Below the pieces are notes generated by a model. It was not told the DNA's origin. It made no database searches and was given only the letters and a program-made list of their open reading frames with translations. Shown here in pieces: positions 57,165 to 62,794 of a DNA stretch of 64,000 nt. The stretch's first letter is position 1. Each line of letters starts with the position of its first letter. The DNA comes from Oligoflexia bacterium (GTDB lineage: Bacteria; Bdellovibrionota; UBA1018). The position numbers were made by a program, and so were the translations under genes. Location of the stretch: contig CAVWVI010000005.1 of NCBI GenBank assembly GCA_963758495.1, positions 96,894 to 160,893 of the forward strand. The letters are read 5' to 3'.

Positions 57165-59603
57165 ATGAACCGTAATGAATTTATTCTATTTTCAGCTCTA
57201 TTTCTTGCAGGATCTCCTTCCCTGGGTCTGGCTCAAGATCATTTAAGTGACCTACAAAAGGCCTTAAAATCTCAAGATAGAGAGCTTGTACAGGCTTTCC
57301 TACAATCATTAAGCCTTGAAGATCCAGAAACCCAGGCAATGCTCTCCAGAGCAGATGAAGACGGAAGATCTCCTCTCATTTCGGCTATTCGAGAAGGGCT
57401 GGGTTTTCCAATAATCCGCCGCCTTTTGAGCTTGGGTGCAGACGTGAATCAAGCTGATCGAGAAGGTAAAACCGCTTTAATTTATGCGGCAGAGAAAGGA
57501 CATATGGGACTCGTGCAGGAGCTTCTCAATAAAGGCGCTAAGGTCGATCATGTAGATAGCTTTGGGTGGACGGCTTTAGGACAGGCACTAGTAGCAACAG
57601 CCAATGAACAAGATCAGTTTAAAGTGCTACAGCTTTTTCTAAAATCAGGTGCCAGTCTGAATAATTCTTTTCCTTCTGATTCTCAGGCGTATTCGAATAC
57701 TTCGATTCATAACCAGCTTCAGGGGCGAACGATCCTAACATGGGCAATTGAATCTAAATCAATGCGATTGACAAGTTTAATTCTTCGTTCTCTAAAGAAG
57801 CAACAAGCCTGGGTGAACCAAAGGGATGGTCGCGGCAGAACACCCTTAATCCAGGCGGTGGAATCAGGCCAGTTTCAACTTGTAGAAGATCTTGTAAGTG
57901 ACGGAGCCGATGCAACGATTCAAGACAATCTCGGTTGGACAGCGTTGAGCAAGCTTTTGGCGCAAGCCCGGAACCCTAAAGCATCTCAGCAGAGCTTTGG
58001 GCAAGAACAGATGAAATGGATGAAGGTATTTTTAGACCAAGGTAAGAAAGCCGATCAAATCTTTCCAGGAACAGAAGCAGCCTACTTAAATAAAAAGGAA
58101 TTCCAGAAATTTCAAGGCCGTTCAATACTTGCATGGGCCGTAGAGAATGATCGCGCAGATGTGATTGCACTTTTGCTTGAGCAGGGTACAGACCTAGGCC
58201 CCTTGGAGCCACTCCTGATGTCCTCGATTGAACGGGGTAATCTAGAAATGTTGGCACTCGTGGTGGGCCAGGGTGTTGATCTTTGTCCGAAGCAGCCGTT
58301 AAATTTCAGCGGTCACACACCTTTGACCTTGGCAGCAGAAAAGGGAAAAGTTGAGGTTGTGAAGTTCATATTGAATTCTCTCTCGCACGCAGAAGATGCT
58401 TCGATATCTCTGAACGAGTGCGATCTAAATGGGATTGGTAAAGATGGAAGGACTGCATTGGGTTGGGCCGGAGCGAAGGCAAATTTAAATGTGGCTCAAT
58501 TGATTATTCAAAAGGGAGAAGAGCAATTTTTTGGAGTATCGGAGTTAAGAAATATGCTGACAGCCGCGGGGACACCACAACTCAAAGGTAAATGGATCGA
58601 GTACTTCTCTGTTATCCAGTTATCAACTCGCTTAACAGATCTCTTGAATATAAAATCAGAGAGCGTTATCGCGTTTGAAGGTGAACAATTAGAAAATCAA
58701 AACCCTGGATTTCTTCCCAGCGTAGGTGCTCTCAAATCCTTGATGAATCAAAAAGCCAAGGAGCTTTACTACCAGGAACAAGAGCAAGAAATTCATAACC
58801 AGTCTCAAAGTGCGATGAAGATAGTTGAACCGAGAACAGATGAAGTGGGTGCCTCTAGTTCAAGCAATCTAAGCAAAATCTCACCTCATTCAGAAATAGC
58901 TTCGTGTATGGTTTGTTTGGATACGATCATGGTTGGAGATGAGCAGCCCTTTGGACCAGCCGGATGTTCGTGTAATATGATTTGTTCGAATTCTGAATGT
59001 ACTGAATATTTCTGTAGCACGATAGTCAATCGTGATGGCGAAGACGTGAGTCGTTGTCCAGGCTGTAAAAGTCCTGTTTATTCAAAGTATTTAGTAGAGC
59101 ATGGTGTAAGTGAAGAAGATGCAAAAAAGGTCCGCAATCGATGCGTCGATATTCTAAATTCACAGCAATTAGGTTGGAGATTTTGTCCGACAACGGGTTG
59201 TGCTGGAGGACGGGTAGTCCAACCTCACGAAAAATCTGCGTATTACTCTTGTATTCTGTGTGGCCATGAAGGTTGCATTAAGTGTGGAAGTGAGCACAAG
59301 GGTGATTGTGCGAATTATGAAAAAGAAATGAAAGAATTTGAAAACCTCTTACGTTTAGGAGCAATGGCTCCCCCGAAGAATAGACCTGCCGACCCAAATC
59401 ACCCAGATTATATGAAGGGCCGTTTTCGCCCTTGTTATCACTGTGGAGTGATTACAGAGCGAGATGGAGGATGCTCACATATAACCTGTAAGAGATGCCG
59501 TGCTGAATGGGAATGGAACTGGGGGCCTTATGAAAGAGGTAAATTTACTATGACAGACCAGCTTCCAATGAAGTTTAAGCCGCTTAAGGCGCCACACTGG
59601 TAG
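57165..59603 (+). CDS. Secreted ankyrin-repeat + RING-between-RING (RBR) E3 ubiquitin ligase-like protein
   Basis: Signal peptide; ankyrin repeats (GRSPLISA, GKTALIYAA, GRTPLIQA, GHTPLTLAA); RING1-like CMVC...CPGC; IBR WRFCPTTGC...CILC...CIKC..EH..C; RING2 RPCYHCG..TERDGGCSHITCKRC. Confidence 0.85.
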   Translation: MNRNEFILFSALFLAGSPSLGLAQDHLSDLQKALKSQDRELVQAFLQSLSLEDPETQAMLSRADEDGRSPLISAIREGLGFPIIRRLLSLGADVNQADREGKTALIYAAEKGHMGLVQELLNKGAKVDHVDSFGWTALGQALVATANEQDQFKVLQLFLKSGASLNNSFPSDSQAYSNTSIHNQLQGRTILTWAIESKSMRLTSLILRSLKKQQAWVNQRDGRGRTPLIQAVESGQFQLVEDLVSDGADATIQDNLGWTALSKLLAQARNPKASQQSFGQEQMKWMKVFLDQGKKADQIFPGTEAAYLNKKEFQKFQGRSILAWAVENDRADVIALLLEQGTDLGPLEPLLMSSIERGNLEMLALVVGQGVDLCPKQPLNFSGHTPLTLAAEKGKVEVVKFILNSLSHAEDASISLNECDLNGIGKDGRTALGWAGAKANLNVAQLIIQKGEEQFFGVSELRNMLTAAGTPQLKGKWIEYFSVIQLSTRLTDLLNIKSESVIAFEGEQLENQNPGFLPSVGALKSLMNQKAKELYYQEQEQEIHNQSQSAMKIVEPRTDEVGASSSSNLSKISPHSEIASCMVCLDTIMVGDEQPFGPAGCSCNMICSNSECTEYFCSTIVNRDGEDVSRCPGCKSPVYSKYLVEHGVSEEDAKKVRNRCVDILNSQQLGWRFCPTTGCAGGRVVQPHEKSAYYSCILCGHEGCIKCGSEHKGDCANYEKEMKEFENLLRLGAMAPPKNRPADPNHPDYMKGRFRPCYHCGVITERDGGCSHITCKRCRAEWEWNWGPYERGKFTMTDQLPMKFKPLKAPHW

Positions 59604-59639
59604 AAGTTAAAATTTAATAAACGAAGTATTAGAGGATTT

Positions 59640-60870
59640 ATGAAATTAATTAGGAATAAAAAAGTGAATAAAATTCGATTGTTTTTAGTGATTATAGCAG
59701 GTTTGGCTCTTCAATCCCTACCGGCAATAGCGGTAGAAAAGGTGTATTTCAAAACCCTAGATGGGGAAGCATTTGCCTGCGACAAGGCTAATTTAGAATT
59801 CCATATTGATCCAGAGGGAAGGCTGTCTGAAATTTGTAATTTTTCGTCAGAAATGGAATCTGGAGATGGGGAATCAGAGAGTACGGCGCTTGAATTAGAC
59901 GTGAATGGAAAGCTATTTAAAAAGTATATTTTAGATATCATAAGACACGGAAAAGTTTCTTTTAAAAATAACGCCGATGCAGAAAATACTTTGACCATTT
60001 GCGAAAATCTCGGTTTAACATTAGCGGAAGAGCACGTTTGTAAATTTCTCAAGAGAAGGCCGCGCAAAAAGAACCAAGAATCTGACGTTCAAATGGCAGG
60101 CAGCAATCGTCATTCTACTCTGGCTAGCCTGGAATGCCCAGAAGGTTACGTAATGGTTCCTGGTAATGAATCTTATAATACTCCGGGTCAGGGTGAAGAC
60201 TTCTGCGTGATGAAGTACGCAGCCTCTAACGGTGAAAACGGCAAAGCTGTTTCACGGCAAGGCGCAGCCCCGTGGGTAAATATTAATCAGGCTAATGCAG
60301 CGGCAGCCTGTTCAGCGAATGGAGAAGGCTACCATCTAATCACAAATGCTGAATGGATGACAATTGCCCGAGACATTGAAGCAAATGAAGTAAACTGGAA
60401 TAATGGAGCAGGACCTGTTGGAACTGGAACATTGTCTAGAGGAAATAGCAATTCTAATGCAGCACTAATCCCAGGTACAGATGAGAGTTCAGTAGCTACT
60501 GATTGGACCCATAGAAGAACTCATATCTTGAGTACGGGAGAGATGATTTGGGATATGGCCGGAAATGTATGGCAATGGGTAGCAGATAATTTAACAACAA
60601 GAAGAGATAATTGGAAAGAATTTACTGATGTAGGTACGTTTCCATTACAGAGCGACATTAGGTCACTGTATGGACCTAGTGGTTTGTACGACTCAAATCA
60701 CGGAACGGGAAAGATTTACATGTACGACGCAGGAGCCGTGCTTCGCGGGGGCGCCTGGAGCCACGGTACTGGCGCCGGCGTCTTTGCTGCGACTCTGGAC
60801 AACTCCGCTACGAGCACGTACCCGGAACCTCGGATTTCGTTGCGCCGTGTCGGCTTCGGGTGCTCGCTAG
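59640..60870 (+). CDS. Secreted BTB/POZ-like + FGE-sulfatase (CLec-fold) protein, DGR target 1 (+1 frameshift near the 3' end)
   Basis: Signal peptide; BTB-like KVYFKTLDGEAF...LDVNGKLFKKYILDIIRHG; FGE motifs CVMKY, PWVNI, LITNAEW, DMAGNVWQW, RGGAW. The GFRC ending lies in the shifted frame (ORF track ends the gene at 60881). Confidence 0.78.
60729..60870 (+). repeat. DGR variable repeat VR1
   Basis: Near-identical to 62156-62299; differences fall only at positions 1-2 of NNC/NNT codons. Confidence 0.8.
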
Positions 60871-60920
60871 CCATGGGTTAATTAGCCCTTGGTCATTGTC
60901 TTGTAGTTGTTTTTAGTGTT

Positions 60921-62299: not shown

Positions 62300-62351
62300 C
62301 CCTGGGTTAATTAGCCCTTGGTCATTGTCTTGTAGTTGTTTTTAAGGATTC

Positions 62352-62366
62352 CTGCCCGAAGGGCAG
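62352..62366 (+). promoter_or_regulatory. DGR-type cis hairpin (GAA loop)
   Basis: CTGCCC-GAA-GGGCAG at nearly the same spacing after VR2 as the VR1 hairpin. Confidence 0.7.
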
Positions 62367-62794
62367 TCGGTTAAAAAAATTTACAAGATTGTTAGAAATT
62401 CCTGGAAGTAGCTAGAAATAGCTGGAAGTTGAAATAAACGTCAAAAACCGTCTGTATTATTTCTAATTTAAACGCTCACTGAATTAAAAACTCCGTAGGA
62501 GTGATTTTAAACCGTACTTGAGCGCAGGTTAAAAACTAGATTCGGACCCCCTAGAGAAAGTTTCCTTCCTCTAGGGTCAGCCCTAGCCTATTGCCCGAAG
62601 TGCCTTGGGGAAAAAATTTAAATATAGGCTTCGGATATCCTCAGACGACTGACTTGAAGCCCTTGGAGGCGGATTTGGCCGGACGGGGGCGGGATAGGGC
62701 AGGATTGGAGACTGGGAAATCCCACTTTCTTTTTCCTATAGGCTATGCATCTGCAATCAATTGGAAGCGCAGTGATTGAAAAAAACTGTGTAAA

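Follow-up and report, generated by a model that had tools for sequence, protein, structure and literature searches.

In a stretch of 64,000 nucleotides (nt) from an Oligoflexia bacterium of the Bdellovibrionota (assembly GCA_963758495.1, contig CAVWVI010000005.1; the whole stretch is called the window below), we analyzed three genes in one orientation at 57165-62299, here named A, B and C. Gene A encodes ankyrin repeats and a predicted, divergent RBR-type ubiquitin-ligase module, whilst B and C each join a predicted BTB fold to a C-type-lectin (CLec) fold whose tip carries the footprint of a diversity-generating retroelement (DGR). Our best reading is that A and B/C form a eukaryote-directed effector pair, in which an exported ankyrin-RBR protein and DGR-rewritten BTB-CLec receptors would act on a eukaryote via ubiquitination; we give this a probability of about 0.5. 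A narrower version, a retroelement-programmable degrader whose exported ligase, working directly or via host CUL3, is re-aimed at new eukaryotic proteins by the DGR, we regard as unlikely. The genome (G000) is assembled to 3.66 Mb in 5 contigs and is 92% complete; the window is C5:96894-160893, and positions given below with no contig prefix are those of the window.

Gene layout and leader sequences

All three genes lie on the plus strand. Gene A (57165..59603) encodes 812 residues with a signal-like N-terminus, ankyrin repeats and the RBR module, as assigned from the open reading frame (ORF), Pfam and a family alignment. Gene B (59640..60881, 413 residues; ORF, Pfam PF03781 and alignments) and gene C (61079..62299, 406 residues; ORF and Pfam PF03781) each encode a signal-like leader, a BTB-fold domain and a CLec fold, and C has an intact G-F-R-C end. 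The gap between A and B is 36 nt and that between B and C about 197 nt. For gene C the ORF listing gives a GTG start at 61007; the ATG at 61079, which agrees with gene B, with homologs and with database entry P0001, is most likely the real start. A promoter and terminator scan stayed close to chance, with 13 promoter-like sites (9.4 expected) and 5 terminator-like ones (5.6 expected), and carried no information on operon structure.

Read by eye, the N-termini of A, B and C run from a charged stretch through a hydrophobic run to a small-x-small site (GLA/QD, AIA/VEK and LLA/VEK, respectively). In A this signal-peptide-like leader takes up residues 1-23 (57165..57233, plus strand; MNRNEF...GLA/QD), and leaders of the same type occur in the paralogs of this genome and in a distant ortholog at locus L006. 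An earlier description made from the letters of this DNA alone (the sequence-only reading) had proposed three co-oriented genes with signal-peptide-like starts, with which the ORFs and the leaders agree.

Variable regions of genes B and C

The variable region (VR) is the last ~105 nt of the variable stretch in each gene, a GC-rich block starting at 60729 in B and at 62156 in C; the two genes are mosaics. On the plus strand, the VR-like block of B (60729..60831) differs from that of C (62156..62260) at 14 sites, all at codon positions 1 and 2; the C block is one codon longer than those of B and of L040, an environmental contig carrying a related locus. Counted by codon position (1/2/3), the differences between B and C were 9/5/0 in the VR vs 9/9/32 in the central CLec block (Fisher p = 2e-5), and the bias was also seen for B against L040 (p = 2.4e-5) and C against L040 (p = 4.6e-5). 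Every variable VR codon retains a pyrimidine at its third position. Across B, C and L040, 86 of 106 VR columns are identical; the other 20, which vary or hold indels, are spread over about 11 codons. From the variable end to the stop codon B and C are identical (36/36 nt), as are 65 of the next 70 nt, whilst in the 150 nt just upstream of the VR only 66 of 135 positions match (49%). With a VR scaffold in which B and C never differ at a third position, next to an upstream flank that has diverged so far, the last homing into the two VRs was very recent.

The rule was found again in a second pair, the paralog at C3:743987 and a remnant at C3:865575, where positions 1-2 of those codons hold eight of nine coding differences. 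Homologs vary at the same sites, and between P0005 and P0006 the aligned parts are near-identical except at VR positions. As positive controls we used three loci found via the CLec domain, L007 (from a Bacteriovoracaceae metagenome-assembled genome, MAG), L017 and L019, which hold complete cassettes of target, helix-turn-helix (HTH) protein, Avd, reverse transcriptase (RT) and template repeat (TR). Their TR/VR mismatches fall at TR adenines in 18/19, 11/11 and 10/10 cases, respectively. The TR peptide of these loci reads RGG-N-W-N-N-..-N-AGVFAA-N-L-N-N-...-N-.-N-.-N-I-GFRC, and most of its Asn (AAY) codons, together with the Ile codon before G-F-R-C, are the variable positions in B, C and L040; the first TR Asn (RGG-N-W) corresponds to an invariant Ala in all three. 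As aligned, then, B and C appear to hold a VR at the C-terminal end of a CLec target, with variation at positions 1-2 of AAY-type codons, a footprint that points firmly to tips written by DGR-type adenine mutagenesis. The DGR signature that the sequence-only reading had seen at these tips is borne out by 14/14 differences at codon positions 1-2.

DGR variable proteins with an FGE-sulfatase-type CLec fold include TvpA of Treponema denticola and LdtA of Legionella. B and C resemble the FGE-type targets of L007, L017 and L019 in the variable last ~35 codons of a PF03781-type fold, in the G-F-R-C end and in the N-terminal export leader. They differ from them in their N-terminal BTB fold and in their placement behind an RBR gene instead of in a retroelement cassette.

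Past the stop codon of B, a GC-rich hairpin with a 7-bp stem, a 3-nt loop and no T-run lies at 60921..60937, about 40 nt downstream, and the same hairpin follows the stop of C at 62351..62367 (both plus strand). The hairpin is conserved in B, C and L040 and is absent from the list of the terminator scan; the GC-rich 3' block of the VR is invariant. The hairpin spacing in phage BPP-1 differs from that found here. In soil and sediment metagenomes, contigs matched the locus with shares of at most 0.15, in pieces of 151-468 nt. Three pieces from metagenomes X2 and X3 showed 0 differences, which suggests that the same or a near-identical strain is present there, perhaps in the very sample from which the assembly came; X1 and X6 held relatives. 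One X1 contig end, at 60830, diverges from B within the VR; this single contig hints at a further VR allele.

Predicted BTB fold and lectin fold of proteins B and C

Both proteins match PF03781 above its gathering cut-off of 23.3 bits (B 29.7, C 38.9). In C the FGE-sulfatase-type CLec fold spans residues 165-406 (61571..62299, plus strand; E = 1e-9), and the targets of the DGRs in L007, L017 and L019 are its homologs.

The domain between leader and lectin covers residues 32-145 in B (59733..60074) and 32-144 in C (61172..61510), both on the plus strand. The domain of B matches the family profile at E = 5.6e-47 and is 65% identical to that of C, on which its fold was modelled. At the level of sequence, neither protein had a Pfam match to BTB at E <= 1, and a search of PDB sequences with the domain of C returned a chance-level match alone (E = 1.8). 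The assignment comes from structure prediction. In the AlphaFold2 model of C, residues 31-150 have block means of 51-83 in pLDDT, mostly 67-83, and the lectin part lies below 50. The modelled elements follow in the order strand, strand, helix, helix, strand and three helices, which is the order of the BTB core. When the domain was compared with 48,161 PDB representatives by VIA-align, at least 46 of 50 rows were titled BTB/POZ, KCTD, Skp1, Elongin C or Kv T1, and the top matches were KCTD10, KCTD9 and KCTD17 (Z = 10.7, 94-102 aligned residues, root-mean-square deviation 2.5-3.5 A). Foldseek placed KCTD5, KCTD17, KCTD9 and KCTD16 first (E = 5e-5 to 8e-4), followed by Skp1, with a TM score of 0.75 on the BTB domain of KCTD17. 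The neighbours of the domain in a language-model atlas, which serve as a lead only, were BTB, Skp1 and Elongin C clusters (0.86-0.90). A BTB fold in the N-terminal domain of B and C is thus supported by the model, with the predicted core elements shared with the BTB/T1 domains of KCTD5, KCTD9, KCTD10 and KCTD17; the differences are an identity of 15-22% and the missing Pfam match.

An exhaustive phmmer scan of 1.84 billion representatives with the BTB-like domain returned 20 relatives. It stands directly after a signal-like leader in 11 of the 13 fetched relatives, counting those with a complete N-terminus, and its fusion partners are an FCVMKY-type CLec fold (as here), a classical FGE-sulfatase, ankyrin repeats or coiled coils. 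From these alignments the domain appears to behave as a mobile N-terminal module of exported proteins. Among metagenomic proteins, P0132, P0140, P0138, P0139, P0127, P0128, P0131 and P0133 have the domain behind a signal-like leader; P0135 is an exception, in which it begins near residue 83 and the N-terminus is non-hydrophobic. Co-folding of the BTB domain of B and residues 24-812 of A gave a score of 0.11 against a mark of 0.32, a value that counts neither for nor against binding.

A published likeness is found in amoeba-associated Parachlamydiaceae, which are described as carrying families of BTB-box and F-box effectors (Domman et al., 2014; PMC4209131). In these bacterial proteins, too, a ligase-adaptor domain of eukaryotic type is combined with a domain that binds proteins, and they share with B and C their multicopy state, their turnover by duplication and decay, and a genome lacking its own ubiquitin system. 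The chlamydial BTB domains are detectable by sequence, joined to leucine-rich or tetratricopeptide repeats and delivered by type III secretion, whereas in B and C the BTB is predicted at fold level only and goes together with a hypermutated lectin fold, Sec-like leaders and an RBR gene partner.

Predicted RBR module of protein A

The ankyrin-repeat region of A covers about residues 55-460 (57327..58544, plus strand; approximate borders), with Pfam Ank_2 at E = 1.5e-42 in five stretches and Ank at E = 1.2e-33. The RBR module follows on the same strand. RING1 lies at residues 581-636 (58905..59072), where the alignment and the model give eight Cys ligands (C-x2-C ... GP-x-x-C-x-C ... C-P-x-C); all eight are invariant in 11/11 sequences, and the model aligns with RING1 of HOIP and with HHARI. 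The IBR lies at residues 674-715 (59184..59309; Pfam IBR at E = 5.4e-4, under its cut-off, and a parkin alignment), with seven of its eight Cys/His ligands invariant in the 11 sequences and the eighth, C130, present in at least 90%. RING2/Rcat lies at residues 757-787 (59433..59525; Pfam IBR_2 at E = 5.3e-6, with parkin RING2 and family alignments), has its first zinc site and, in the model, reaches a pLDDT of 79-89 across the last six 10-residue blocks. The putative catalytic cysteine is Cys770 (59472..59474), in a GGC-S-H motif aligned with GGC-M-H of parkin RING2.

Three IBR-type Pfam matches of A fall narrowly below their cut-offs, among them IBR_2, with 26.9 of the required 27 bits over residues 755-786, and IBR, with 20.4 of 24.3 bits over residues 665-713. 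A search of PDB sequences with the last 257 residues of A found the IBR-RING2 of parkin at E = 1.8e-5, with GGC-S-H-I-T-C aligned to GGC-M-H-M-K-C; the GGC cysteine of this motif is the active-site Cys of parkin. Cys770 falls in G195-C196 of the alignment numbering, which is invariant in 11/11 sequences, distant relatives included, as are the first-site zinc ligands of RING2 and a C-terminal P-x3-P-H motif.

The AlphaFold2 model of A residues 575-812 has a mean pLDDT of 76.8. Searched against the PDB with Foldseek, it gave 47 matches at E <= 0.001, and all rows listed among them are RBR ligases; HOIL-1 came first (8.3e-10 over 265 columns), followed in the listed rows by ARIH2, parkin, HHARI, HOIP and RNF216. 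VIA-align gave Z values of 5.9-5.0 to HOIL-1, HHARI, ARIH2 and HOIP, low values, as is to be expected of three domains joined flexibly. By alignment, A thus has the order RING1-IBR-RING2 with zinc ligands and a putative active-site Cys, and we read it as a divergent, predicted RBR-type ubiquitin-ligase module whose second RING2 zinc site has been lost.

With the eukaryotic RBR ligases (parkin, HOIL-1, ARIH1/HHARI, ARIH2, HOIP and RNF216) A shares the domain order, the zinc ligands of RING1, of the IBR and of the first RING2 site, and the G-C active-site Cys. It differs from them in being bacterial, in its export leader and N-terminal ankyrin repeats, in having no Ariadne, UBL, RING0 or LDD domain, and in a family-wide W-x-W-N-x-G at the second RING2 site together with a conserved C-terminal P-H-[FWY]. 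The C-terminal Ariadne domain mediates binding to neddylated cullin-RING ligases. As A ends about 42 residues past the catalytic Cys and has no such domain, nothing in its sequence supports a link to neddylated cullins of the ARIH1 kind, and such cooperation, as the sequence-only reading had suggested it, is not supported. Its domain calls fared better: ANK-RING1-IBR-RING2 in A was recovered by Ank_2 and by the Foldseek matches to RBR ligases, and BTB-CLec in B and C by the predicted KCTD-like fold and PF03781.

The RBR family is rare. Four near-length proteins were found among 5.8 billion, two of them from this genome, and when 57 further genomes of this bacterial family were searched, 3 had the module, against 0 of the 343 sampled from elsewhere in the phylum. 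A homolog search with the RBR profile at longer length returned animal ankyrin-2 and other long ankyrin proteins, because the longer alignment rows carry ankyrin columns, and was uninformative on the RBR family. Matches of A to NCBIfam models of Legionella Ank effectors were ankyrin-repeat matches far below the cut-offs and were not used. At the related locus L053 (G209:C176:6380-15285) three RBR genes stand in tandem, and two more lie on another contig (L055); at the N-terminus they do not resemble the ankyrin region of A, and no BTB-CLec gene is nearby.

Recurrence of the gene pair

Further copies of the A+B pair were found in this genome at C2:78015-81787 and C3:743987-747771, and a degraded one at C3:740975-742863, which gives three intact cassettes (C5, C2 and C3) and one degraded (C3). 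All six BTB-like copies in the genome are fused to a CLec fold, and the four intact ones all lie in cassettes headed by an RBR gene. A search for related loci found the same pair on L040 (one locus, 87% nt identity), where the BTB-CLec gene (P0002/L040) is a mosaic, resembling B in its 5' half and C in its 3' half. In a Bdellovibrionales MAG (L006, genome G218), A and B are directly adjacent at 30% identity for A and 38-40% for B/C; the BTB-CLec ortholog there has a degenerate tip. The gene adjacency seen by the sequence-only reading is therefore conserved. One RBR gene of this genome is solitary (C1:117049-118632).

Possible host dependence and proposed mechanism

Profile searches of the genome for UQ_con, ubiquitin and Cullin gave no match; UQ_con also matched no control genome, which makes its absence a weak one. 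OTU and U-box were likewise not found, with controls that matched nowhere and so weak absences again, and F-box-like gave one match under the cut-off. With searches for E2, ubiquitin and cullin all empty, the gene content of the genome fits dependence on a eukaryote. The genome further holds 81 Ank_2 matches spread over dozens of ORFs, and four secretin genes.

In the mechanism we propose, A, B and C would leave the cell by Sec and a secretin-type pathway and would act on a eukaryotic host or prey, delivery into the eukaryotic cytosol being inferred. DGR adenine mutagenesis of AAY codons has altered about ten ligand-binding residues in the last ~35 codons of B and C while keeping the scaffold, and the variable lectin tip would bind a changing target. 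The BTB domain may oligomerise the receptor, dock it on a ligase scaffold (host CUL3 or protein A), or both, and protein A would relay host ubiquitin through Cys770.

With a DGR-marked lectin fold joined to a BTB domain and an RBR gene alongside, hypermutation is coupled to ubiquitination tools of eukaryotic type. Most known DGR targets are binders on surfaces or phage tails; sensors of bacterial conflict systems have lately joined them. If the programmable-degrader version is true, it would involve the first known DGR whose target is the substrate receptor in a ubiquitination machine, and A would be the first functional bacterial RBR ligase. In searches of full-text literature we found no description of a DGR target fused to BTB or tied to ubiquitin, and no bacterial RBR ligase. 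A rare bacterial RBR family with a one-zinc RING2 bears on RBR catalysis and on how bacteria take up and reshape the parts of eukaryotic ligases; passages of one paper treat IBR/RBR as eukaryotic families alone (PMC4327156). The genome also bears on lifestyle: the many ankyrin genes, together with the A/B module, suggest that some members of this lineage deal with eukaryotes instead of bacteria. It is for preying on bacteria that the Bdellovibrio-type lineage is better known.

Evidence against the proposal and alternative explanations

Several findings weigh against an effector pair of this kind. The BTB fold was called on a model of C with an overall mean pLDDT of 45, a single one of 18 members of the BTB-like family matches Pfam BTB_3 (E = 0.0016, weak), and a KCTD-like fold does not imply cullin binding. 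In A, the second zinc site of RING2 is replaced by W-x-W-N-x-G in all members of the family; the position of the parkin C-x2-C is E/D/H-W-N-x, no later Cys follows and there is one conserved C-terminal His. The His two residues past the catalytic Cys is present in 3 of the 7 sequences that cover this column (8 aligned). The two modules also occur apart, with RBR genes in G209 and G272 that have different N-terminal regions and no BTB-CLec neighbour, and CLec-only paralogs without BTB in this genome. Within the VR of B, a CCC run at 60821-60823 (plus strand) has one extra base in alignments with C and L040, so that the reading frame is shifted over the last 14 codons and G-F-R-C is lost. This base may be genuine or an error of the assembly. 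Neither such a frameshift nor the codon indel by which the VRs differ in length is expected from templated homing. On the side of the host, Sec leaders are unusual for proteins that act in the host cytosol, and the absences of UQ_con, OTU and U-box are weak, no control genome having been matched. VirB4 and the type VI secretion sheath were not found in the genome; type III secretion was not searched for.

The retroelement itself is also missing. No DGR RT, Avd or TR was found in the assembly. Its five PF00078 matches have YADD and a maturase-like tail, presumably the mark of group II intron-type RTs (C3:1667-3406, C3:1302401-1304140, C1:324639-326345, C3:327880-329193 and C4:24489-25358). When the L007 and L017 proteins (RT, Avd and HTH) were searched against the genome by tblastn, no DGR RT or Avd came up: the RTs reached only E = 1e-6, to these five genes, and the two Avd proteins E = 0.93 at best. 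At E <= 1e-10 a DGR RT had 0 matches here vs 11 of 74 other genomes of the family, five of them nearly full length. TR peptides found by tblastn the VRs of the paralog family only, plus weak matches; blastn with both VRs found the VRs themselves and a 55-nt remnant, and no third copy. An adenine-free 24-mer of the VR occurs exactly twice in the genome, at both VRs, and in 0 of the 74 family genomes, and two adenine-free VR probes had 0 matches in a viral contig collection. The retroelement may be unassembled, supplied in trans or recently lost. As no RT, Avd or TR is in the assembly, present-day re-targeting is unproven. The sequence-only reading had named the lack of an RT and TR, together with a lack of A-biased VR variation, among the findings that would speak against it, and the first part of this is what the assembly shows. 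As a whole, its picture held for the four domain calls, the DGR signature and the adjacency, and gave way for the RT/TR and the ARIH1-type link. For the re-targetable kit exported to a eukaryote that it had proposed, the missing E2, ubiquitin and cullin fit dependence on a host, and the missing retroelement leaves the re-targeting half without its engine in the assembly.

Two candidate DGR parts were rejected. The locus C3:865249-865700 was considered as a TR; its variable codons are not all-adenine, no RT is nearby, and it is a deletion remnant, in which the last ~100 nt of a CLec VR directly follow a piece resembling residues 494-546 of A, in its linker region. Its 3' end and downstream sequence match the paralog at C3:743987, and it lies between sigma-54 activator-like and diacylglycerol-kinase-like genes. 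In G218, L066 (G218:C26:1232-4714) has a DGR-type RT (IGNLSSQ...YMDD) and an Avd-like ORF on a different contig from the A-B pair; it was considered as the source for the BTB-CLec gene of that genome, and blastn found no matching TR within the 3.5-kb locus. Two of the group II-type RT copies, of 579 residues, are almost identical, and the C4 copy is broken by a stop.

The missing retroelement leads to the alternative that we take most seriously, namely that a DGR wrote the VRs and has since been lost, so that the paralogs now change by duplication, recombination and decay only. This is quite possible, if somewhat short of an even chance. It would account for the empty searches of the 92%-complete assembly, for the adenine-free VR probes that went unmatched in 74 family genomes and in viral contigs, and for the frameshift in B, the codon indels inside the VRs, the degraded copies, the deletion remnant and the degenerate tip of the G218 ortholog. 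It sits less well with the identity of B and C at all non-variable VR positions and over the 36 nt to the stop, which would make homing very recent, and with L040, which at 87% identity has the same scaffold yet another set of variable codons; DGR RTs are, besides, found in 11 of 74 other family genomes, and 8% of this genome is unassembled. That no retroelement was ever involved, and that gene conversion among paralogs together with strong diversifying selection on the binding residues shaped the tips, we find hardly credible. The paralogs are indeed mosaic, as in P0002/L040, but selection leaves unexplained the constant third bases and the coincidence with AAY codons of genuine TRs, and the same rule holds in a second, independent pair of paralogs.

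The remaining alternatives accept the DGR footprint and dispute the target. B and C could be variable adhesins or receptor binders, with a BTB that serves only for the avidity of multimers and no ubiquitination, and with the ankyrin-RBR protein as a separate effector; we think this rather doubtful. Exported DGR targets are commonly surface binders, the nearest structural matches are oligomeric KCTD BTB domains, the fusion of leader and BTB-like domain to unrelated C-terminal modules is a generic pattern of oligomerisation or delivery, and G209 and G272 have RBR genes without BTB-CLec. Such a separation does not explain why 4/4 intact BTB-CLec genes stand in cassettes headed by an RBR gene and why the pair is kept at 30-40% identity in G218; BTB and RBR are, moreover, both parts of ubiquitin ligases, in a genome in which no ubiquitin, E2 or cullin was found. 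A system internal to bacteria, such as a conflict or immunity system with DGR-diversified sensors and no eukaryotic ubiquitin, would suit the position of the module in an island rich in insertion sequences (IS) on a ParA-bearing contig, and DGR-diversified FGE/CLec sensors in bacterial conflict systems are reported in the literature (PMC7159879, PMC10907252). We judge it improbable, as no ubiquitin-like protein or E2 was found that the RBR could work with, all partners have export leaders, no NTPase or other conflict-system gene adjoins the trio, and the abundant ankyrin genes point to a eukaryotic partner.

Genomic surroundings

The trio lies directly 3' of a mobile-element island with IS21-type and IS66-type elements (49438-57096). 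The island holds an IS66-family transposase (49438-50316), two IstB-like ATPases (50796-51560 and 53669-54430), a Mu/rve-type transposase (51592-53139), an XRE-type HTH gene with a small upstream partner (54788-55441) and, next to the trio, a 446-residue ORF with no Pfam match (55756-57096). On its other side the trio is closely followed by a minus-strand ORF that runs past the window end (63249-63998) and in which Pfam finds GLUG motifs (PF07581, E = 4e-9). Contig C5 is 164.8 kb long and carries, close to its end, a ParA-like ATPase and an adjoining 414-residue ORF (C5:162349-164401); it may be a plasmid or secondary replicon.

Elsewhere in the genome, four CLec-only paralogs, three of them in tandem, lie at C1:219432-223369 and C4:396910-397863; they have a VR-like end, no BTB-fold domain and no RBR neighbour. 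Within the window, an outer-membrane efflux protein, an HlyD-type adaptor, two ABC ATPases and two ABC-2 permeases follow one another at 42569-49202, an AcrB-family pump is encoded at 21105-24335, and the ORF at 6558-12314 encodes 1918 residues with no Pfam match at E <= 1e-4.

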